Below, in pieces: positions 1,794 through 40,043 of a stretch of 45,814 nt of DNA. The stretch is taken from the sequence record MG050172; one strand, given 5' to 3'. Each line of letters starts with the position of its first letter. The stretch's first letter is position 1. Below the pieces are notes generated by a model. The model saw only the letters and a program-made list of their open reading frames with translations, ran no database searches and was not told the DNA's origin. The translations under genes were made by a program, and so were the position numbers. The DNA comes from Escherichia phage DTL.

Positions 1794-2222
1794 ATGAATT
1801 GGCATGAACATTACGATTACAAAGATGGAAAGCTTTATAGGAAGTACCAAAACCACAATCACCCGGCAGGAAAGGAGTGTGGCTGGATTGATTTAAGGGG
1901 TTACGTTAGGACTAAGCTGTTTTCAAAGATGACTTTTGCCCATCTAGTAATATGGGAAATGCATAACGGAGAGGTTCCCGAGGGCATGGAGATCGACCAC
2001 ATTAATGGAGTTAAGCATGATAACAGGATTGAGAACCTAAGGTGCGTAGATAGGTGGGTAAACTGCAAGAATATGGCGAAGAGAAAAGACAATAAAAGCG
2101 GGCAAACTGGAGTTAGTTACGTTGAGTCAAGAAATGTTTGGGTAGTAAGTATACATGTAAACAAATTCACACATAGTCACACGTGCGATACGAAAGATGA
2201 GGCAATTTCAATTGCAAAATAA
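1794..2222 (+). CDS. HNH homing endonuclease
   Basis: Signature AHLVIWEMHNGEVPEGMEIDHINGVKHDNRIENLR; RBS GGAG upstream. Confidence 0.8.
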   Translation: MNWHEHYDYKDGKLYRKYQNHNHPAGKECGWIDLRGYVRTKLFSKMTFAHLVIWEMHNGEVPEGMEIDHINGVKHDNRIENLRCVDRWVNCKNMAKRKDNKSGQTGVSYVESRNVWVVSIHVNKFTHSHTCDTKDEAISIAK

Positions 2223-2348
2223 ATTTACGCAGAAAACCCAGAATTCACAGAGAGGCACGGTAAATAGCACTTTTTGCCTAACCCACGCCGTAGAAATACG
2301 GCATAATCACCACATCGAAACGAGACAAACCAAGAGAGGAAGCACAAA

Positions 2349-2525
2349 ATGACTAAAATGATTTATTGCACCAAGAACAACTCCAAGACACTGCCATTTA
2401 CAGTTAACCAGCCGTACAATGCAGAGTATCAGGGTGACGGATACTACAAAATTTACGGTGACGATATGACGTGGATTTTAGCGCCGATTGACGGTTCGTT
2501 GGTTGAATTTATTATCGCAGACTAG
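2349..2525 (+). CDS. small hypothetical protein (58 aa)
   Basis: ATG after RBS-like AGAGAGGAAG; preceded by CATCGAAACGAGAC leader motif; followed by terminator. Confidence 0.3.
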   Translation: MTKMIYCTKNNSKTLPFTVNQPYNAEYQGDGYYKIYGDDMTWILAPIDGSLVEFIIAD

Positions 2526-2551
2526 CGCAGAAAAAACATAGCGTTACAAAC

Positions 2552-2578
2552 GGGGAGCCTTTTGGCTCCCTTTTTTTA
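2552..2578 (+). terminator. rho-independent terminator
   Basis: GGGAGCC-TTTT-GGCTCCC hairpin followed by T7 run. Confidence 0.7.
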
Positions 2579-2655
2579 TGCTTCTTTTCCGAGCGGTGCT
2601 AATGTATCATTCTTTTATTAACTTAAACATTGACAAATACATAAAGGTGGATCAC

Positions 2656-2871
2656 ATGAGGGAAGTAATTAACGCCGCTACGGCATCAACTGGCGGTGCT
2701 GCGTTTACTGGAGCTGCAACTGGTCAAATGACTATAGCAATAATCAGCCTTATCGCTCTAATCATTTTTGGAGCTTGGGGGGCTTATTGGAAGTATAAGG
2801 ATAGCCAGGCGATTCGCAGAGCGCTTGAATCTGGGGATTTAAAAACAGCAATCAATATAAGGAGCAAATAA
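2656..2871 (+). CDS. putative holin
   Basis: Small protein with hydrophobic TM segment IAIISLIALIIFGAWGAYW and charged C-terminus; RBS AGGTGG; immediately upstream of endolysin. Confidence 0.55.
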   Translation: MREVINAATASTGGAAFTGAATGQMTIAIISLIALIIFGAWGAYWKYKDSQAIRRALESGDLKTAINIRSK

Positions 2872-3357
2872 ATGAAGCAGAAGCTGCTAATTAGCGCGGC
2901 TACGGCTGCGGCAATATACATCGCAGCGCCGCTTATTGAGCTCGTTGAGGGTGTGGAGAACAAGCCTTACATGGACATTGCCGGAATCCCTACGGTGTGT
3001 TCCGGTATTACCGGTCCAGATGTGGTCTGGGGTAAAACATACAGCAACAGGGAGTGCCGGAACCTGCTTGAGAAACACATTGAGATTCATGACAAGCATG
3101 TTCAAAGTGCTGTAACCTACCCAATAGCACCGCAGACAAGAGCGGCGTTAATCAGCTTTAGCTACAATGTTGGAGGCTCAGCGATGAGGAAATCAACTGC
3201 TGTTAAGTTGATTAACCAGGGTAAAGTGGAGCAGGGCTGTAAGGCTCTAGGCCTTTGGAATAAAGCTACCGTTAATAGCAAGAAGGTTGTGGTTAAGGGG
3301 TTAGTAAATCGCAGGAATGAGGAGATTAAGTTATGCTTAAGTGGATTGCAGCGTTAG
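2872..3357 (+). CDS. SAR endolysin (T4-lysozyme-like muramidase)
   Basis: N-terminal signal-anchor-release segment; catalytic E-x8-D-x5-T pattern (ELVEGVENKPYMDIAGIPT); start overlaps holin stop (TAAATG). Confidence 0.75.
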   Translation: MKQKLLISAATAAAIYIAAPLIELVEGVENKPYMDIAGIPTVCSGITGPDVVWGKTYSNRECRNLLEKHIEIHDKHVQSAVTYPIAPQTRAALISFSYNVGGSAMRKSTAVKLINQGKVEQGCKALGLWNKATVNSKKVVVKGLVNRRNEEIKLCLSGLQR

Positions 3358-3722
3358 TAATGTGCGTAGCTTTATCTGGGTGTTCAGCAACATCTGCTCT
3401 GACTGGTTTGATTGGCAGTAAGCCAGAGATTAGCGCTCAAGCTGGTGCAGAGAACAATAAGGTTGGTGTTGGGTTAACGAACAAGGTTGACTCCAGTAAC
3501 TCCAGCGAAGCTACGGTTAAGGATTCCAAGGTTGGGTCACTGGATAGCTCGAGCGGGAAAAAGACTGCTGATAACTCTATTAAGGCCTCAACAATTACCG
3601 CCGAAAAGATTGAGATTACTAATAACGAATCATCAGCGCTTCCGTGGGTTGGAACAGGAGCTATGGGTCTGCTGGTTTTAATTCTCATGGCATTAATCTT
3701 AAGACGTAAAAAAGCCTCCTAA
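3333..3722 (+). CDS. unimolecular spanin (T1 gp11-like): OM lipoprotein signal plus C-terminal TMD
   Basis: Lipobox LSGC near N-terminus, Ser/Thr-rich periplasmic region, C-terminal TM helix GAMGLLVLILMALIL then RRKK; overlaps endolysin 3' end. Confidence 0.7.
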   Translation: MLKWIAALVMCVALSGCSATSALTGLIGSKPEISAQAGAENNKVGVGLTNKVDSSNSSEATVKDSKVGSLDSSSGKKTADNSIKASTITAEKIEITNNESSALPWVGTGAMGLLVLILMALILRRKKAS

Positions 3723-4075: not shown

Positions 4076-5659
4076 TCACCCCAGCAGTCGCGGATTAATG
4101 TAAACTTTATCACCAATCAGGCACGTATAGTTCTTCTCATCGAGCATCGGCAGTAAGTGATCTTTAATCTTCGTCATTACTCCAGCCTGAGCCTCGAACG
4201 GCTTAACCTTGCGAGCCGCTTCATACAATGAACGAATGCCAACAACACCCTTACCGTTTTTGCCTTGCTTGATCAGAATGTCAATCAACTTATTCATCTC
4301 GGCATTGTCACCAGCGTGACCTGCGGCATTAGCAGATGAAAGGTAAGTTTTGCTTAGTTCATTAAACATAATTACAGCTTCTTGCATGGTATCCAATTCA
4401 ATTTCCCTGGACTTCTGCGGACTACCACCATTTGGGTTGAACCAGTTACGCACAGTGTGAAGAACCGCCGCAATCCTGATAGCCTGTTTATCGAATTTAC
4501 CCAGGGCGCCGCGCAGCATCGTGTGCGAATATTTTCCGCCGTCAGCAAGGTGCGGCTCCATTTCCTGGCGTGCTTTGTTGAGATATTTCATTGCCGAGTT
4601 GCTAACCGTGAGCTTAACATCTTGTTCGTTCATTATTTCGTGAACCAAGCGGAAATAATCAGCCTTCAGCCCACCATCAATAGGTTCGTAAGTTGAGTCT
4701 CCATTCTCATCAACGAACACGCGCTCGCCAAGAAATGACTTCTCGCGTACAAGCAGAAAACGCTCAGAAACACCGATACCACGCGCACCAGCATTCATGA
4801 TTGCGTTAATCGTCTCATCCTGCGCAATTACAGATATGCAGCCCATAGCAACGAAACTCATATTATTCTCTGAGTTCGCGCGCGCAATAGATACGTTACC
4901 CGCATCCCACGCTTTAAGCACGAGTTCGCTGTTCGTTTTCTTAGAGCCATCACCATAGGTCATGCCTAAAAGTGAGTTAACGCTAGTTGCTTCGTCAGAA
5001 ATTACCGCAAAGTTGCCCTGACGGTTGTTTATTCGCGCAAGACCTTCCGGCGTGGTGTCGGATACGGGGAAAACGATATCGCAAAGTTTCTCGAGCTTTT
5101 CCTCAAGATCCTCCTTCTCCTCAAAAAGAGAGGCCATCTCTGACGGAGATTTTTCCTGCTTAATCTCTTTGGATAATGCAGATAGTTTGGCCATAATCTT
5201 TTTTCGCTCACGTTTTCGCACTTCATTAAGCCGCTCAGTCTCAGCAATCATTGGAGCAATTGAAAGTGAGTTGATTGCTGATTTACCAGTCGATGGCGGC
5301 TGGCTTGTTACAACATAAAGCGAAGTTGGTTGCTGAGTTCCGTGATACTCAACTGTAAATCGTCCTAGCATGGCGGCAGAAATACACCCCAGGAAGTGCA
5401 TGTATGCGGACGACTCCGGAAACTGAACAGAACGAGCGATATTGGATGATAGTTTGCCAACAACATCAATATCATTACCCAATGAGATTACGGGATACTT
5501 GTCATTAGCCGCATCAATCTCGACTGGCGCTTTCCAGAATGATTGAGACTGGCGATATCCATTAGCATTAATAGCGACTCGCAGTGGGGTGAGGTTGTCT
5601 GCTGCAGCAATTGCCATAACCTGTTCAACAGATAGTTTATCTTCGTTGAAATCAAACAT
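4076..5659 (-). CDS. hypothetical protein (527 aa), full-length member of a two-member paralog family
   Basis: Long ORF; N- and C-terminal ~40 and ~80 aa are homologous to the 140-aa product of 8671..9093. Confidence 0.5.
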   Translation of the reverse strand: MFDFNEDKLSVEQVMAIAAADNLTPLRVAINANGYRQSQSFWKAPVEIDAANDKYPVISLGNDIDVVGKLSSNIARSVQFPESSAYMHFLGCISAAMLGRFTVEYHGTQQPTSLYVVTSQPPSTGKSAINSLSIAPMIAETERLNEVRKRERKKIMAKLSALSKEIKQEKSPSEMASLFEEKEDLEEKLEKLCDIVFPVSDTTPEGLARINNRQGNFAVISDEATSVNSLLGMTYGDGSKKTNSELVLKAWDAGNVSIARANSENNMSFVAMGCISVIAQDETINAIMNAGARGIGVSERFLLVREKSFLGERVFVDENGDSTYEPIDGGLKADYFRLVHEIMNEQDVKLTVSNSAMKYLNKARQEMEPHLADGGKYSHTMLRGALGKFDKQAIRIAAVLHTVRNWFNPNGGSPQKSREIELDTMQEAVIMFNELSKTYLSSANAAGHAGDNAEMNKLIDILIKQGKNGKGVVGIRSLYEAARKVKPFEAQAGVMTKIKDHLLPMLDEKNYTCLIGDKVYINPRLLG

Positions 5660-6087: not shown

Positions 6088-6150
6088 TTTGTTTGCCTTC
6101 GTGTGTTTCGTTTCGATGAGATGAATATACAGGAAAAGCCCCGAATGGCT

Positions 6151-20967: not shown

Positions 20968-21397
20968 AAATATTGGAAGCGTGGCTACTTTTGAGAAATC
21001 TATTGCCGACTGGATTGACAGGGCCGATAAAGGTTTTGAGATTATAGTGGCTAATACGGTCACTAAAACAGCTAACGCAATTGTTGACCTTTCGCCTGTC
21101 GACACGGGTAGGTTCAAAGCTAACTGGCAAATCACCGCAAATTCACCGGCCCAGCAATCACTGAATGAGTACGATCAGACTGGTTGGCAGACGAAAACAT
21201 ATCTCGCCAGACAAGCTAGGGCAGCTGCCAATTCAAAGGCCACTAGTGTTATTTATATAACCAACCGACTTGATTACGCAGCAGATCTTGAGTACGGAGC
21301 TTCAAATCAGGCTCCAGCTGGCGTTTTGGGAGTGGTGCAGGCAAGGTTAGGCAGGTATTTCCAGGAAGCAGTAGAGGAGGCGCGTCGTGCAATATGA
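20960..21397 (+). CDS. putative tail completion / neck protein (HK97 gp10-like)
   Basis: Motif VDTGRFKANW; internal ATG 20960 preferred over track start 20924. Confidence 0.4.
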   Translation: MARNIGSVATFEKSIADWIDRADKGFEIIVANTVTKTANAIVDLSPVDTGRFKANWQITANSPAQQSLNEYDQTGWQTKTYLARQARAAANSKATSVIYITNRLDYAADLEYGASNQAPAGVLGVVQARLGRYFQEAVEEARRAI

Positions 21398-21788
21398 ATT
21401 ATCATTAGCGGCAAGGAAATTCGTCAATGATTTACTGGTAAATGAATTTCCGGTCAGATATCCAGTTGCGTGGGAGAATGCTGCATTCACTCCTCCGGCG
21501 GATGGGTCAATCTGGCTTAAGTACGACTACACAGAAGCTGACACTGTAACCTACGGATTAAGCAGGAAGTGCAAATACTACGTAGGCATGGTGCAGATCT
21601 CTGTTTTCTTCAGCCCTGGAACTGGAATTGACAGGCCCAGACAAATCGCTAATAAATTGGCAGAATCTATCATTGATGGTACAATGCTTGACAGCGGGAC
21701 CATTTATGAGTCTGGATTTGTTAACCCCGTTATCAAATCTAAGTCTGGGTGGTTTATCCCGGTTCGTTTTTATGTTCGTCTAGACTAA
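21387..21788 (+). CDS. putative tail terminator protein
   Basis: 133-aa ORF just upstream of major tail gene. Confidence 0.35.
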   Translation: MQYELSLAARKFVNDLLVNEFPVRYPVAWENAAFTPPADGSIWLKYDYTEADTVTYGLSRKCKYYVGMVQISVFFSPGTGIDRPRQIANKLAESIIDGTMLDSGTIYESGFVNPVIKSKSGWFIPVRFYVRLD

Positions 21789-21815
21789 ATTAACTCATTT
21801 ATTTGGAGGTGTATT

Positions 21816-22472
21816 ATTGCTCATTTATCAAATGGCACGCAGGTCTTCGTAGAAGGCTCTCGCGGAGCTGCAATTAACGTAACTGCAATTTCTAACGCAG
21901 TTACCCCTGTTTTAACCGTAGCTGACGGCTCTGGTATTGAGGTTGGCAATCACCTCCTGTTTACCGCGTCTTCCTCTACACTGCTTGCTGACAAGCATGT
22001 CCGAGTTACCGCAGTTACTGGTACATCAATCACAGTTGAAGGTATCGATACTTCTAGTACAACAAAATTCCCGGAGGGGTTGACTGGTGAAGTGGTTAAG
22101 ATTCTTTCCTGGTTCGAGGTTCCATGCGTTCAAGATGTATCCACTGACGGCGGCGAGCAGCAGTTCGTTAGCTTCCAGTGCTTGTCAGATGACCGTGAGC
22201 AGCAGATTCCGACTTATAAATCTGCCGTAACAAACACGTTCACCTTTGCTCATGAGTACACCAACCCGGTTTATCCGGTTCTGCGTAACTACGATGAGTC
22301 AGGGCAGGTTGTCGCAATTCATCTGTATGTTCCACGCGCACAGGAGATGCGTTTGCAGTCCGGCACTATCGCTTTCAACGACACGCCAACCATTGGTGTT
22401 AACGAAATCGAAACGGTGTCCATCTCGGTATCCATTCGTGGTCGACTGTCATCTGTGGCAGCACCAGCTTAA
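21816..22472 (+). CDS. major tail protein (start codon uncertain, apparent ATT)
   Basis: Frame open from 21789 to 22472 with no ATG/GTG/TTG until 22080; strong RBS GGAGGT 5 nt upstream of ATT 21816. Confidence 0.5.
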   Translation: MAHLSNGTQVFVEGSRGAAINVTAISNAVTPVLTVADGSGIEVGNHLLFTASSSTLLADKHVRVTAVTGTSITVEGIDTSSTTKFPEGLTGEVVKILSWFEVPCVQDVSTDGGEQQFVSFQCLSDDREQQIPTYKSAVTNTFTFAHEYTNPVYPVLRNYDESGQVVAIHLYVPRAQEMRLQSGTIAFNDTPTIGVNEIETVSISVSIRGRLSSVAAPA

Positions 22473-22475
22473 AGA

Positions 22476-22500
22476 ACAAACCCTCTTCGGAGGGTTTTTT
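22476..22500 (+). terminator. rho-independent terminator
   Basis: CCCTC-TTCG-GAGGG followed by TTTTTTATT. Confidence 0.65.
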
Positions 22501-22582
22501 ATTGCATAGCACTTTTTGCTAAAGCGCTCGTTCAACTTTGCTGTATAGTTACTTCATCGAAACGAAATGAAGGAATTAAGAA

Positions 22583-22831
22583 ATGAATAACGTTAAAAAC
22601 ATTATCAAGCTCGCTGCGGTTCTTGTTGCTTTTTATGCAGTAGTTCAGATTGTTAACCCAACTGGCGAGGCTGATGCCAATAGCAAGGCAAACAGATATA
22701 CTGTTGAATTTTCTAAGGCTGAGCTAGCATGTCAGGAACTTGTAGGTGGCAAAGTTGACCAAATCATGAAATACGGCAAAGAGGTTTGTAAGGACTCGGC
22801 TGCTAAGATTGCAAAAGAAAACACTAAGTAA
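22583..22831 (+). CDS. small secreted/membrane protein (moron-like insert in tail cluster)
   Basis: N-terminal hydrophobic segment; own promoter element and CATCGAAACGAAA leader upstream. Confidence 0.45.
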   Translation: MNNVKNIIKLAAVLVAFYAVVQIVNPTGEADANSKANRYTVEFSKAELACQELVGGKVDQIMKYGKEVCKDSAAKIAKENTK

Positions 22832-22869
22832 TAGAATACATACTCACAAACAATAAGAGGATTAACATA

Positions 22870-23184
22870 ATGGCAAAGTTCAAACTTTCACTGGCGGCAC
22901 TTCCTGACTTTAAGCTGCCGGTAAAATTCAAGCTGGCTAACGACCAGGATGTAGAGGTTATCTTTACGGTCAAGCACAAGAAAACATCTGAGTTGCAGGA
23001 ATTACTTAGCAAGGAAGATTTGAGCACAAAGGAACTTATCATGGCAATTGCTTCTGATTGGGATTTGGAGGAGGAATATAACGAAGATAACGTTAATGAG
23101 TTATCTGACCTTTTCCCAGCCTCAACCGTTGCACTGACTACCGCTTACATGCAAGCTTTAGCTGGTCAGCGAGTAAAAAACTAA
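22870..23184 (+). CDS. tail assembly chaperone (lambda G-like)
   Basis: 104-aa ORF between major tail and tape measure genes; ends in slippery A_AAA_AAC. Confidence 0.65.
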   Translation: MAKFKLSLAALPDFKLPVKFKLANDQDVEVIFTVKHKKTSELQELLSKEDLSTKELIMAIASDWDLEEEYNEDNVNELSDLFPASTVALTTAYMQALAGQRVKN

Positions 23185-23504
23185 AGAGGGCGGTGTATCT
23201 ACAGTACCAGTCAGACCCAACAGATGCCGAACTGGAAGCTATTGGGATGCGCCGCTCTGATTACGAAGATGAAGAGCCTGAGGTTTTACACTTCGACGAC
23301 AACATGATGAAGGCGTGGGACATTTATTGTTCAATGGCTACACAGTGGAGAGTCGGAGCTAACGGAGCTACAGGTTTAGATTACAACGTGCTAAACTTCC
23401 TCTTTAGAGTGTATAATGTTTCTGAAGAAGAATTGGTGCTCAGCGATTTACGCATCCTTGAAGCTAAGGCTCTAGAGATGATGGATAACCTGAGAAAAAA
23501 ATAA
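22870..23504 (+). CDS. tail assembly chaperone frameshift fusion (lambda G-T-like) by -1 slip at 23175..23181
   Basis: Heptamer AAAAAAC immediately before the G stop; -1 frame is open from the slip site through 23504. Confidence 0.55.
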
Positions 23505-23539
23505 CCCGCTTCGGCGGGTTTTCTATTATGGAGGCTTAG

Positions 23540-26515
23540 ATGGCAACAAATGAATTAGCCGGAATCACACTAGCCGTAGACGTCTCGCAAGTAGACAGTG
23601 GCACGCAATCCCTGCAAAAGTTCAGACAGGCTAACCAACAGGCCGCTTCCGGTATTGGTGAGTTCGTCAACGCTGAGCAGGTTGCTAAAAACCAGGCTAG
23701 AGATACCGCTCGCGCACTGGCTGAGCAACAGGCATCTTTAGCTAAGCTTCAAACGGCTATTGACCCGACGGCTGCAAAGTTCCGCAAACTCCAGGAGGCA
23801 GCGGTAGGTCTTGATAAGGCATTCGCAGCTGGAGTAGTTCCTGATGAGGAGTTTTTCCGATTAGGTGAAGCGCTTGAAACTCAAAACGCAAAACTTGCTC
23901 GTTCACGCGCGGCGCTAACTGAGGAAGGTAGAGCGGCAGCACAGGCTGCAAAGGATAAGGCAAAAGCAAAGGCTGAAGCGGATAGGTTCATTGCATCACT
24001 TGAGCGTCAGGCTCAGGCGGCAACATTGACGCGAGAGGAGTACATAAAGTTACAAGCGGCCCAGCTTGGCGTTAGCTCTCAGGCTGCACCCATCATTGAC
24101 AGAATCGCCGACGCATCACAGAAGGCAAACACCCAGTTAATTGCTCAGAGTAAGGCTTTTCAGAAATCAGGATTAAGCGCCGGGCAATACAAGAATGCTA
24201 TATCTCAACTGCCAGCGCAGATTACTGATATTGGCACATCGCTTGCTGGAGGCATTCCGATTTGGCTTATTGCAATTCAGCAAGGTGGGCAGATCAAGGA
24301 TGCATTTGGCGGTATTGGTAACACCTTTAGATTCGCGCTTGCAGCCTTAAACCCATTCAATGTAGCTGTTGGTGTTTTGGGTGGGGCACTTGTAGCTCTT
24401 GGTGTTGGCGCGGCTCAGGCTGAAAGTGAATTCAGGGCGTTAAACTCCGCAATTGCATTCTCCAACAACTCTACAATCGCATCAATCTCGCAGGTTAGGG
24501 AGTTGGTTAGCTCTGTTTCTGATGCAACAGGTGCCACCAGGGGGCTTGTGACTAGCATCGCAACAAGCCTTATTGAACAAGGTAACCTTACGCTGACGCA
24601 GATTGACAAGATTACTAAATCGACCGCAAGATGGGCGCAGTTGACAGGTAAGGATGCGAAGGAGATTACTGGTTACTATAACCAGATTGCGAGCGACCCA
24701 ATACAGGGATTGGTTGATTTGGATAAGCGCTTTAACTTCCTCACTAATGGTCAGTTGACGACGATCGAAAACCTGAGAAAGACAAAGGGAGAAGTTGAGG
24801 CAGTTACCGCTGCGATCGATATTTTCAGCAAGTCACAGGAAGCTAACCTTAACGACATAGCAGCTCAATTGACACCACTTGAATTGGCCTGGAATGATTT
24901 CAAAAAGTACATCTCTGATATCTGGGATGCAATTAGCCGTAGAACGGTTGGGGCGCTGAACCTGTTTGTTGACGTAATTGCCGGAACAATTGAGCAAATC
25001 AGGGTCTTCATTAACCAGGGTGATGTGCTGATTGGTGAATTCGTAATTAGCGCAACCCAAGCATTGCAGAGCATTCCTGGTCTTGATGGCGTTGGTGATG
25101 ATGTTATCAAGGGTCAGCAAAAGATTATCGATGCAGCTAAGAAACAAAACCTTGAGCTAGAAAAGTCTATCAGGGAGCGATATGCCAGAATCAGAGAGGG
25201 AGAACTTGGTTACGTTACTCGCAGAGAAAATCAGAATACCAACGAGCAATCAGGGACCGATGAGGAATTCGCAAAAAGGAGGAAGGCACTTCAGGATGAA
25301 CTTGATGCGATCAAGAAGAACAGGAAAGAAGAAAATGGTAGGGTTAAAGAGCAAAGAGACCTTACAATTGGTTACGAATCCGGCGTACTGGCACTTCAGG
25401 CTCAACTCAAGGTTCTTCAGGAAAATAGGGATATTGGCGCAGTAATAAGCAATGAGCGCAAACAGTATCTTCAGGAAGAGGCCAAATTCAGGATTCTTGA
25501 ACAGAGACAACTTGATGGCTCAATTACCAAAGAGCAGGCAAGACTTCTTCTTGAAAAGGACAAGATTCTTGAGTTAGCAAAGCAGAAGGCTGAACTAGGA
25601 GATCAGATTATTTTGCAGGAGCAAGCCAATAAGTTAGCTGAAGATAACCGCAAGAAGATTATTCAGATTAACAATGAAGCAAGTAACATCGACTTGGGTG
25701 CTGGGTTATCATCTCGTGAGCAGCAAAGGGCTAAGGAGATTCAGGCACTTCAATCCAATCAGGTTAATGCTGGTGGTTCTGTTGATGACGTAGACTTTCA
25801 ACAGCTACTGGAGGCGAGACGCAACTTTTACGCTCAGGAGGATGCGCTACGTGAAAACTGGCTCGCCGGCGTGAATCAATCCTTTGCCAATTGGGCTGAG
25901 AGCGCGACGGATGCATTCTCAATTGCTGGAAGTTTAACTACTACCGTCTTCGAGGGCATTACCGACCAGATTACCAACCTTGTAACCACTGGCGAGACTA
26001 ATTTCAGGGAGTTCACAGTTAGCATCCTTAAGCAGATAGCGAAGATTGCAACCCAGCTTCTTATTGTAAAGGCCATCGAGTCTAGCTTAAGTAGCTTTGG
26101 TGGTACTGGTGGCACTATTGGTTCAATTGCCTCTGGATTAGGTTTTGCTGGTGGCGGCTACACTGGGGATGGTGGAAAATATCAGCCAGCAGGCACGGTT
26201 CATCGTGGAGAGTTTGTATTCACAAAAGAAGCTACAAGCCGAATCGGTGTGAAAAACCTTTACGCGCTAATGAAAGGATATGCAAACGGCGGCGCGGTTG
26301 GTGGTCATTCCGGTTATGCAAATGGCGGTTTGGTTTCTGGTGGAACAGATGTTAATGTTAGTGGCATCACTGTTAACGTAAACTCCGGGGTTGGTAGCGA
26401 CCCAGAGCAAGCTAAGGCATTGCAAAGTGGAGTTAAGGCAATCGTAGCGGAAGAGATTGCTCAGTCTTTCCAGCAGGGTGGCCGTGCTTATGCTTACCTT
26501 CGCGGATTCAACTAA
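23540..26515 (+). CDS. tail tape measure protein
   Basis: 991 aa, Ala/Gln-rich coiled-coil N-half, TM-like central segment, Gly-rich C-terminus; canonical position. Confidence 0.85.
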
Positions 26516-27866: not shown

Positions 27867-28364
27867 TTGGAGACAAAAATGAACTGGAATGAAATTTTCG
27901 AATACAGAGATGGCAAGATCTATTGGAAAGTTAGCCCTGGCAGGAGGGCTAAGGTTGGTTCGGAAGCTGGATCAAATCAAATAAAAGGGTATAGATTTGT
28001 GAAATTTCACGGAGTTTTATATATGACACACATGGTTATTTGGGAGATGCATAACTGTGAAATACCGCATGGAATGGAGGTTGACCATTTAAATCACATT
28101 AGGGACGATAACAGGATAGAGAATTTAAGAGTTGTTACAAAGTCAATTAATCAGAGGAATGCATCTAAAAGAATTGATAATAAAAGCGGTTTTACAGGCG
28201 TTTCTTGGTATCCCAAATATTCAAAGTGGAATGCTTACGCGACAGTAAATTCCAAGAGGTTTAATCTTGGTTACTTTGAATCAAAGCAAGATGCCTGTGT
28301 GGCTGTTAAAAAATTTAGGTCCATAAATTATTTTCATAAAAACCATGGAGTTGATTTATGTTAA
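27867..28364 (+). CDS. HNH homing endonuclease
   Basis: Motif HMVIWEMHNCEIPHGMEVDHLNHIRDDNRIENLR; inserted between L-like and K-like tail genes. Confidence 0.8.
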   Translation: METKMNWNEIFEYRDGKIYWKVSPGRRAKVGSEAGSNQIKGYRFVKFHGVLYMTHMVIWEMHNCEIPHGMEVDHLNHIRDDNRIENLRVVTKSINQRNASKRIDNKSGFTGVSWYPKYSKWNAYATVNSKRFNLGYFESKQDACVAVKKFRSINYFHKNHGVDLC

Positions 28365-33167: not shown

Positions 33168-34133
33168 TCAGTACATGTTTGGTATGTACGGCAACTGCAT
33201 TGATATGTTTGTATTGAATGGAAATTTAGCGCCAGTCTTTGTTGAGTAGTTTCCGATCACACTGCAAAACTCAGACCTGACAGAACCATTAGACATTACA
33301 ACCCCTTTATATCTAAGGTTGTTATAGCCACCAGTTACGCGAGTATAAGCTCCGGTCCTAAGTATGGGGAAGTATCCGTCACCTATTGACTGAAATGAGT
33401 TTGATATCTGAATGAATCCACCAAGCACAAAAGGCCTCTTGACAGTAGAGAATACAACCTGGCCGGCCGGGTTTGCTATTGTTATCCCCGGCCCGCCAAC
33501 CGGCGCAGTGTTGTTGAATATAACCAGGTCAACGACAACTGATGCCGACACGTTATCTATGCCGCCGTATGTGTTATTCCTGCAAAGAATCCTAGACCCA
33601 TCAAACTCGAGCGTAACGTTTGGATTACTCCACCTACCAAACGGGATTCCAGTTATTGGTAGTGTATAACTCCCATTCACCGTAACTCTACCAACAAACT
33701 GAGCTGTCATTAGCCTTGAGTTTGTCGTTATAGAGATAAAGTCAGTTGAGTTGGCAACAAGTATGCCTTGACCCGTGGACGCACCTGTTATTTCAAAGCA
33801 GTTTCCTGAGAAGTTTATCAGCCTTCCTTTAGCGCCGTTAAAGTTGCTAATATTTATTCTTCCTTGCGTATTTGATACCCGCTGGAATCCATTCATATAG
33901 TAAACCTCAGGTATAACATTGAAGTCTATAACATCAACAGCCTTTATTGGCAATGCGAATGCGGTTGATCCATCTGTTTGGCTAAGTGAAAATGTAAGAC
34001 CCCCAGACTGAGATGCAAAACTTTTAGTTGGAATAGATCCGGTCACATTAGGTGCTCTTAAGCCGGACGTTATCTGCATTGCTGGACTTCCATCATTCAG
34101 GTCTATTAGAATACCCTGTGGCATTATTTCCAC
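33168..34133 (-). CDS. hypothetical protein, possible receptor-binding protein
   Basis: 321 aa, Gly/Asn/Thr-rich; co-transcribed downstream of the Cor-like gene. Confidence 0.4.
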
Positions 34134-34366
34134 TCCTTAGAACCATGGTCTTTAATGGAGCCACCGTAACCGCCACCAGTGGCCTTAATTCCATCGTAGC
34201 GCACATCAACTTCGCCAGCTGGAACAACCACACCATTTTTCCATTTAGCCACGCATACGCCGCTTGCTTGCGTTGCACACCAACCATCAGGACGTGGACC
34301 TGATGAACAACCAACTGTCATTATTACTGCTGCTGAGATGATTACTGATTTGATGAAGTTAGTCAC
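34124..34366 (-). CDS. putative Cor-like superinfection-exclusion lipoprotein
   Basis: 80 aa, lipobox TVGCSS, GTG start, placed just beyond the J-like gene. Confidence 0.45.
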
Positions 34367-34399
34367 TTTGTACTCCTTAGTTAGTATGTTTCGTTTCGA

Positions 34400-39956: not shown

Positions 39957-40026
39957 TGTGTAAAGTCTCCATTTGTAAAATAGCACTAATTGCTAAGTTG
40001 GATTGTAGCATCTTTCAGGTATAAAA

Positions 40027-40043
40027 AAACCTCCAGAAGGAGG
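40027..40043 (-). terminator. rho-independent terminator for primase transcript
   Basis: On minus strand CCTCC-TTCT-GGAGG followed by T7. Confidence 0.6.

Follow-up and report, generated by a model that had tools for sequence, protein, structure and literature searches.

A probable lineage-restricted insert encoding a predicted envelope protein in the tail operon of Escherichia phage DTL

The locus and its insertion slot

The sequence record MG050172 of Escherichia phage DTL (45,814 nt; this whole stretch of DNA was analysed and is referred to below as the window) contains within its tail operon a small open reading frame (ORF) of 82 amino acids (aa), located at 22583–22831 on the plus strand, belonging to phrog_22925 and called ORF82 here. 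Upstream of it lie the tail terminator gene (21387–21788, PF13554) and the major tail protein gene (21816–22472, PF08813), the latter with an apparent ATT start codon, a stop at 22472 and an intrinsic terminator at 22478–22503 (+), which was called by the terminator scan and consists of the hairpin AAACCCTCTTCGGAGGGTTT (22478–22497) and a T-run. Downstream of it are the gene for the tail assembly chaperone G (22870–23184, +, PF08748), the −1 frame T extension of G (23193–23504, +, DUF1799), the next terminator (23503–23520, +) and the tape measure protein gene (23540–26515, +, 991 aa). The original prediction, made from the letters of the sequence, had described an ORF of this length between the major tail protein terminator and the chaperone gene, equipped with an ATAGCAC element, a TATAGT box and a CATCGAAACGAAA leader, as an independently expressed moron in a late structural operon; the ORF, its three upstream motifs and both flanking landmarks are indeed found in these places.

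In a blastn search against GenBank phages, the region 21800–23540 matches 541 phage records, with Escherichia phages BEK2 and BEK3 (92% identity), Veterinaerplatzvirus and Guelphvirus at the top. On sequence grounds, the phage is a T1-like siphovirus of the Drexlerviridae, subfamily Braunvirinae. Drexlerviridae are virulent phages.

The synteny comparison called for by the original prediction brought out relatives without the insert. The gap between the major tail protein and chaperone genes measures 397 bp in the window and 72–115 bp, with no ORF, in 13 relatives outside Braunvirinae, namely T1 and ISF001 (Tunavirinae), tonnikala and PHB07 (Tempevirinae), e4/1c (Rogunavirinae), BMac (Webervirus), Klebsiella phage K50 and six Rogunavirinae-like loci from IMG/VR. 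Likewise, the gene is not a universal structural component of the operon, since tblastn finds ORF82 in 80 phage records versus 848 for the adjacent chaperone, and in close relatives it is replaced by an unrelated lipoprotein. The slot is filled in every member of Braunvirinae sampled, either by the ORF82 family or by this lipoprotein. ORF82 is carried by the window, EC3a, ACG-M12, TR2, Rao1, IMM-001, IME253, IME542 and the DSM 12242 group; the lipoprotein is carried by Rtp (rtp34, lipobox LLAGC), AugustePiccard, RobRod40, MM01 and TR1, where it has 126 aa, the lipobox LTLTGC and 31% identity to rtp34. The rtp34 and TR1 lipoproteins share with ORF82 the slot, the promoter, the leader and the ribosome binding site, with borders that agree within a few bases; they are likewise exported and have two conserved cysteines besides the lipid-anchor cysteine. 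They differ from ORF82 in being lipid-anchored, in having a mature length of about 110 residues and in their sequence (9–18% identity). In TR2 and Rao1, an additional unannotated ORF of 46 aa, the very hydrophobic MILIGMLTAFFYYATGLTFWVSLGAAIGTYFVSAVLALIVIALRNR with two predicted transmembrane (TM) segments, lies between the promoter and the ORF82 homolog (4342–4482 of the TR2 locus, same position in Rao1). All cargo types seen in the slot are envelope-directed. When IMG/VR was scanned with the chaperone protein, the 13 loci obtained were mainly known isolates; they widened the synteny comparison but brought no further cargo types.

The borders of the cassette are sharp. In the nucleotide alignment of Braunvirinae, conservation extends from the terminator through the ATAGCAC element, the −10 box, the leader and the ribosome binding site to the start codon, and it resumes just ahead of the ribosome binding site of the chaperone gene. 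The terminator of the major tail protein gene, which forms the upstream boundary of the insert, is kept across all Braunvirinae compared, and every other member of Drexlerviridae examined has a terminator at the same position. Directly behind the terminator, the relatives examined that lack the insert have a −10-like box (TGTTATAAT, TGTAAAAT or TGCATAAT) and then a short untranslated region (UTR) of the form ACTCACAAAC..AGGAG. When the post-cargo and post-terminator segments were aligned by MAFFT (global pairwise alignment of the intergenic regions was scattered and uninformative), a homologous TAGAAT box and ACTCACAAAC UTR of the window were found to lie downstream of ORF82. Because the box and the UTR are homologous to the insert-free arrangement, they are regarded as a retained putative chaperone promoter that marks the downstream boundary, and since this resident box is kept 3' of the ORF, the insert comprises a promoter-like element, a leader and an ORF, with the terminator on one side and the putative chaperone promoter on the other. 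The TAGAAT box (22832–22837) forms part of a sigma-70-like TTGCAA-17 nt-TAGAAT arrangement at 22809–22837 (+) that overlaps the 3' end of ORF82; in the promoter scan it has 9/12 matches, which alone is not above chance, and the EC3a record annotates a promoter at the matching position. That the promoter of the insert merely replaces an ancestral restart promoter was considered and rejected, as the ancestral box is still present downstream of ORF82.

Morons in the sense of Juhala and Hendrix, as summarised in PMC3594210, are extra DNA between genes that are adjacent in relatives and have a deviating base composition, and both features are found here. The guanine–cytosine (GC) content of ORF82 is 40.2%, with 37.3% at third codon positions, whereas the window as a whole has 44.3% and the flanking genes have 49.0% / 42.5%, so the deviation is modest. 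Expression from a repressed prophage, a further mark of morons, is not applicable since Drexlerviridae are virulent. A terminator of its own, as expected of a moron, is lacking, for the terminator scan gave no terminator-like site on the plus strand between 22497 and 23503; the cassette is therefore no self-contained unit, and transcription from it is expected to read through G and G-T and to end at the 23503 terminator. Taken together, this anatomy and the restricted distribution of the gene make it very probable that ORF82 is a lineage-restricted accessory insert and not a core or structural tail gene.

The promoter-like element and its repeat family

The ATAGCAC heptamer occupies 22506–22512 and belongs to a 17-nt element, ATAGCACnnnTTGnTAA, of which the window contains 15 copies at no more than one mismatch, versus 0.1 expected; 0 of 100 shuffles reach 15. 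The sites include 1722, 6151(-), 9192, 10723, 11173, 22506, 27810, 34435(-), 36547, 39980 and 44958. Behind most of the copies, a TATAAT-like box follows after about 20 nt and a start codon after about 75 nt. The copy at the insert (22506–22522, +) reads ATAGCACTTTTTGCTAA, contains the half-palindrome TAGCA-N5-TGCTA and has its midpoint about 42 nt ahead of the inferred transcription start. It has been reported that phage TLS carries a 21-nt direct repeat, aaATAGCACnnnTTGnTAAAA, at 21 sites, oriented along transcription and about 76 nt upstream of start codons; this repeat was also noted in T1 and Rtp, and the authors discuss roles as an enhancer, an UP element or a repressor site, leaving its function unknown (PMC11447400). 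In the window, ATAGCACTTTTTGCTAAAG at 22506 sits 77 nt upstream of the ATG at 22583 in the same orientation, and the site agrees with that definition of the T1-like ATAGCAC direct repeat in consensus, intergenic location, orientation and distance to the start codon (PMC11447400).

The −10-like hexamer TATAGT is found at 22544–22549 (+) and aligns with the TATAGT/TATAAT-type boxes of the other repeat copies. It is followed by the leader and 5' UTR (22555–22582, +), of which CATCGAAACGAAA takes up 22555–22567, with the transcription start inferred near 22556. CATCGAAACGAAA recurs exactly at 6106(-), 34389(-) and 45007, and with a single mismatch at 2313. The ribosome binding site AAGGA (22570–22574) precedes the ATG (22583) by 8 nt. 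No structure is predicted for the 5' leader, which folds more weakly than shuffled controls (z = +1.9) and matches no family in the Rfam scan; rsmX, the sole hit, was discarded because its 21 bits fall short of the gathering score of 56 and it coincides in part with the terminator. A scan of metagenomes with the 15-nt leader ATCGAAACGAAATGA found the ATAGCAC element upstream at 1 of 120 loci, the pattern being too short for a collection of this kind. An ATG within the leader (AAATGA) opens a mini-ORF of 7 codons, MKELRNE (22567–22590), which overlaps the start of ORF82 in another frame; the same mini-ORF has only 3 codons in EC3a and Rtp and is probably incidental.

A promoter of its own, which is another mark of morons, is suggested for the ORF by the ATAGCAC element, the TATAGT box and the resident box retained downstream, but a canonically spaced −35 hexamer was not found at 16–18 bp from TATAGT. 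For this reason the generic sigma-70 scan does not call the promoter at 22544, and the assignment is therefore drawn from the repeated motif and its position. As for the independent expression claimed in the original prediction, an insert with its own promoter-like element is present, but the insert lacks a terminator and the promoter-like element is of a generic type. Elements of the ATAGCAC type also precede two HNH endonuclease genes, the lysis cassette, replication genes, an Erf-like gene and the operon of the receptor-binding protein. The element is thus a general repeat of T1-like phages (PMC11447400), found ahead of early, replication, lysis and structural genes, and is uninformative on the timing or independence of expression; its use as a marker of early or autonomous expression was rejected on the same grounds.

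At 22506, the distance of about 42 nt between the centre of the repeat and the inferred start is that of a class II activator site, and a normally spaced −35 hexamer is missing. This suggests that the half-palindrome TAGCA-N5-TG(C/T)TA of ATAGCACnnnTTGnTAA may be bound by a dimeric DNA-binding factor, and that the element is not an UP element. A candidate for such a factor is the helix-turn-helix (HTH) regulator of the phage, a homolog of Rtp rtp52. Several further copies are of note for the repeat family itself. At 39980–40030 (+), a repeat copy and a −10-like TATAAA are followed at once by a GC-rich hairpin, AACCTCCAGAAGGAGGTT, facing convergent minus-strand genes; this site could be a gene-less promoter, the source of a very short transcript, or an antisense start. 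In T1 (locus positions 1757–1779) and tonnikala (1764–1786), the repeat is inverted (TTAACAAAAAGTGCTAT) and lies between the post-terminator −10-like box and the ribosome binding site of the chaperone gene. In these two insert-free phages, the inverted repeat would thus be downstream of the putative start, a position more like that of an operator or a reverse-strand promoter. The two HNH homing-endonuclease genes of the window (1794–2222 and 27867–28364) both start with MNW.E..Y.DGK.Y and each have an ATAGCAC-type element upstream; one of them is inside the tail operon, like rtp40 of Rtp. Accessory inserts in this phage group tend to carry this promoter type.

The predicted protein and its family

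ORF82 is a real gene and no chance frame, because the comparison with its ortholog in phage EC3a gives proportions of nonsynonymous (pN) and synonymous (pS) differences of 0.026 and 0.28 (pN/pS 0.09), because it matches phrog_22925, a family of unknown function, from end to end (E = 1.6e-55), and because length and cysteines are conserved: homologs at 50–61% identity keep the length, C50, C69 and a set of invariant residues. The predicted product is divided into a signal peptide or signal anchor (residues 1–32; 22583–22678, +) and a helical hairpin, predicted to be exported, which contains the invariant C50 and C69 (residues 33–82; 22679–22828, +). The hydrophobic N-terminal segment reported earlier is confirmed, residues 6–24 having a mean Kyte-Doolittle value of 2.1. 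The N-terminus comprises an n-region with the positive charges K5 and K9, a core of 15 residues (L10–V24), an Asn-Pro-Thr-Gly break, an Ala-x-Ala motif (A30, A32) and the invariant N33. The signal features, that is K5/K9, the core and A30-x-A32, are conserved in most homologs, ACG-M12 having Glu at −3. The signal peptide and TM prediction asked for in the original prediction has a published answer in phage MSK, where the gene after the major tail protein, MSK_000011, is one of only two genes with a SignalP 4.1 signal peptide and also has a TMHMM helix (PMC8421802). This gene is the ortholog of ORF82, with 95% identity.

The first 28 residues have pN/pS values of 0–0.2, compared with 0.11–0.47 for the exported part. 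Such constraint at the N-terminus is unusual for a disposable signal peptide, and an uncleaved signal anchor with a functional TM helix therefore fits equally well. If cleaved, the precursor of 8.9 kDa would give a mature product of 50 residues, 5.5 kDa and an isoelectric point of 9.0. In both cases, the product is likely to be exported or membrane-anchored and to reside in the envelope, judging from these sequence features. The AlphaFold2 model consists of a helix (residues 2–24) and a hairpin of two helices (30–54 and 58–81), with a mean predicted local distance difference test score (pLDDT) of 64. A Foldseek search of the Protein Data Bank (PDB) gave no significant fold match for the model, only generic helical hairpins with a best E of 1.8. 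Given the low-confidence model and the generic matches, no inference from the fold was drawn.

In database searches, ORF82 gave no match in Pfam, NCBIfam or PADLOC at E up to 1, and none among PDB sequences in a profile search at E up to 10. An exhaustive HMMER profile search showed that the family is a single cluster among 1.84 billion representative proteins, so that there are no distant relatives to guide the assignment of a function. A word-indexed protein search found only close relatives, all on contigs of at most 49 kb.

That the gene encodes a tail assembly or virion component specific to Braunvirinae is scarcely credible. It does sit in the tail module, and read-through would co-transcribe it with G and G-T; however, a Sec signal or anchor is incompatible with tail assembly in the cytoplasm, the gene is absent from most of the family, and close relatives whose tail genes are 89–100% identical swap in an unrelated lipoprotein.

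T4 RI and class III holins have an architecture that resembles the topology predicted for ORF82. The product might accordingly be considered a regulator of lysis timing, antiholin-like or RI-like, that modulates the holin or spanin, and the predicted N-in/C-out topology, the small periplasmic domain and the conserved N-terminal helix would all suit this role. It is nevertheless very unlikely, since the gene is about 20 kb away from the lysis cassette (~2339–3722, homologous to Rtp rtp62-65), the other Drexlerviridae sampled have nothing in the slot, Rtp has a full lysis cassette with other cargo in the slot, and the Pfam and PHROG scans show no similarity to any holin or antiholin family.

A further role for a small exported protein is the masking of the outer-membrane receptor in the manner of Cor, Llp and Rtp45, which spares progeny from adsorbing to debris. 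In the window, this function already has a dedicated gene: an Rtp45-like superinfection-exclusion lipoprotein is encoded at 34124–34366 (-) and matches PF24052 with E = 3e-37, and it adjoins an Rtp44-like receptor-binding protein gene (33168–34133, -). The promoter of the Rtp45-like gene is of the ATAGCAC type, with the exact CATCGAAACGAAA copy at 34389(-) as its leader. It has been reported that Rtp45 binds LptDE from the periplasm (bioRxiv 10.1101/2025.07.07.663478), and the Rtp45- and Rtp44-like genes indicate LptD as the receptor of the window phage. Like Rtp45, T5 Llp and Cor (PF24052), the ORF82 product is small, predicted to be exported, probably held by a disulfide and made by a phage in lytic growth; its size is near that of mature Llp and Rtp45, and its CATCGAAACGAAA leader is identical to that of the Rtp45-like gene. 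Unlike these proteins, ORF82 has no lipobox, its first cysteine being residue 50 and its signal region ending in ...NPTGEADA|N; it does not match PF24052; and its gene is not adjacent to that of the receptor-binding protein. Nor does it correlate with receptor type. IME253 carries ORF82 at 94% identity, and in the tail region JeanPiccard has 88% nucleotide identity to the window (JulesPiccard also carries the region); the BASEL paper reports FepA for IME253 and LptD for JeanPiccard as the receptor. The same ORF is thus present in phages with FepA and LptD receptors, and on this comparison the slot cargo does not appear to follow the outer-membrane receptor type. Receptor masking by ORF82 is therefore highly improbable.

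Tape measure types and a possible exclusion function

The tape measure protein encoded downstream is a mosaic. Its first ~260 and last ~400 residues are shared among the phages compared, and its centre exists in two types that are mutually unalignable, the divergence beginning inside the second hydrophobic helix. The window has the central variable domain of type X (24333–25324, +, approximate limits; residues ~265–595 of 991). Type X proteins have about 990 aa and type Y proteins about 921 aa, and X-like and Y-like central domains also alternate in Rogunavirinae and other subfamilies. All ORF82 carriers examined are of type X and all lipoprotein carriers, including those with the rtp34 and TR1 lipoproteins, are of type Y, so that the cargo type matches the tape measure type in 86/86 records surveyed. 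The pairing is seen on two chaperone backgrounds: the window and EC3a versus Rtp and AugustePiccard, with chaperones 93–100% identical, and TR2 versus TR1, with chaperones 96–99% identical. Within Braunvirinae, type Y at ≥88% identity is found only in Rtp, AugustePiccard, TR1, RobRod40 and MM01, which are exactly the lipoprotein carriers.

The closest precedent for the exclusion mechanism proposed below is HK97 gp15, a small YebO-like inner-membrane moron product whose gene lies beside the chaperone and tape measure genes and whose exclusion depends on the incoming tail (PMC3594210). It is likewise an envelope-protein insert in a siphovirus tail operon that is absent from close relatives, and it blocks genome entry without touching the receptor (PMC3594210). 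ORF82 differs from it in several respects. It has no sequence relation to gp15, since the Pfam scan at E up to 1 gave no hit, not even to YebO; it lies 5' of the chaperone gene, whereas the gene for gp15 follows the chaperone gene and precedes that of the tape measure protein; its cassette lacks a terminator; and its phage is virulent, so there is no expression from a prophage. Among virulent phages, T4 has Spackle (Sp), a small and largely helical protein that a signal peptide directs to the periplasm of the infected cell, where it neutralises a component of the tail tip of superinfecting virions. It is the closest virulent-phage analogue of the mechanism proposed below; sequence or fold similarity to ORF82 is not detectable in the PDB profile and Foldseek searches, and the presumed target of ORF82 would be the tape measure protein, not the tail lysozyme.

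As a whole, the locus may be best explained, if only tentatively, as an accessory cassette whose product acts in exclusion after adsorption and facing the periplasm. Host RNA polymerase would start near 22556 at the ATAGCAC-type phage promoter, and the unstructured leader would permit efficient translation of the 82-aa precursor, which the Sec system would export. The product would stay anchored in the inner membrane via its conserved N-terminal helix, or would be cleaved after Ala32; either way, a basic helical hairpin of ~50 residues, held by a disulfide, would face the periplasm. There it would disturb the envelope crossing or insertion of the tape measure protein that a homotypic superinfecting phage ejects, and would thereby keep the incoming genome from being delivered to infected cells or debris. 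Such exclusion would complement the receptor-masking Rtp45-like lipoprotein of the same phage. That the tape measure protein of a homotypic superinfecting phage is the target of this post-adsorption exclusion is the favoured reading, although less likely than not. A broader form of the idea, in which Braunvirinae possess a swappable exclusion slot whose cargo is matched to the phage's own tape measure centre (the hairpin, anchored or soluble, for type X, the lipoprotein for type Y) and each cargo recognises the tape measure protein ejected by homotypic phages and stops genome delivery, is unlikely.

Several points weigh against this exclusion mechanism. No ORF82 homolog of known function was found in the family, structure or profile searches, and the structure model is of low confidence (pLDDT 64). 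The promoter of the ORF is read from its motif only, for which the TLS authors also weighed repressor-site and enhancer roles. The co-variation of cargo and tape measure comes from about four independent lineages, and one patch replacement of the chaperone genes could yield the same pattern, so physical linkage is a sufficient explanation. The type X domain of ACG-M12 and ECH1 is 98% identical to that of the window but their ORF only 50%, a mismatch in divergence that argues against tight co-evolution of the ORF and the tape measure protein. X-like and Y-like domains also occur in subfamilies with an empty slot, and the cargo is therefore not needed for tape measure function. In addition, exclusion at the injection step is less obviously beneficial to a virulent phage than to a prophage.

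Some of the same observations bear on the alternative that the product is an accessory envelope protein with another target, such as a host protease, a nuclease, a stress sensor or an exclusion protein of a prophage or plasmid, and that the slot is simply a tolerated insertion site. An exported or anchored product of an orphan family agrees with it, as do the acceptance of unrelated envelope cargo (the lipoprotein and the 46-aa ORF with two TM segments) and the drift of the ORF to 50% identity while the tape measure centre stays at 98%. It is somewhat unlikely, given that no candidate target can be named and that the 86/86 match between cargo and tape measure would have to be coincidence or linkage.

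If the exclusion mechanism is true, the BASEL phages JeanPiccard and JulesPiccard, together with AugustePiccard carrying the lipoprotein alternative, offer a compact testable system. It would address how a siphovirus tape measure protein moves the genome over the periplasm and inner membrane and how rivals are blocked there, and it would affect the design of cocktails of T1-like phages, in which cross-exclusion would have to be considered by tape measure type and not by receptor type alone. A slot with matched cargo, if real, would represent the first exclusion system aimed at the tape measure protein in virulent T1-like phages, and would open a direct way to study the passage of siphovirus tape measure proteins through the Gram-negative periplasm. 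If the function differs, the annotation is still useful, as it describes a conserved exported accessory protein rather than a tail component, and whatever ORF82 does, the interval between the tail tube and chaperone genes is an insertion hot spot in Braunvirinae. The repeat element and a hypothetical gene at the position of ORF82 are already public, and accessory inserts for envelope proteins in tail operons are a well-known kind of element. The promoter-bearing insert, the alternative envelope cargo, the retained ancestral chaperone promoter and the co-variation of cargo with tape measure type appear to be undescribed in the literature searched.

A few minor observations concern other parts of the record and the databases. 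The apparent ATT start of the major tail protein gene (21813–21818) lies behind a strong GGAGG, whereas relatives use ATG, and the 30 nt upstream of the gene are also unlike those of relatives; a non-canonical start is unusual for the most abundant tail protein. A tRNA-Arg gene (anticodon TCT; 12077–12154, +) is located just 5' of the small terminase subunit gene, as in other T1-like phages. Records named Pseudomonas phage PsgS01F and Campylobacter phages A110b, A143 and others (PP134917.1 and MG065688.1 are among these records) are nearly identical to coliphages of this group; the 44,679-bp length and the match statistics of PsgS01F equal those of an E. coli phage record, and a protein labelled Nitratidesulfovibrio liaohensis is found on a phage-sized contig of 46.7 kb. 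These PsgS01F, A110b, A143 and Nitratidesulfovibrio labels look like host mis-assignments or contaminating T1-like phages.

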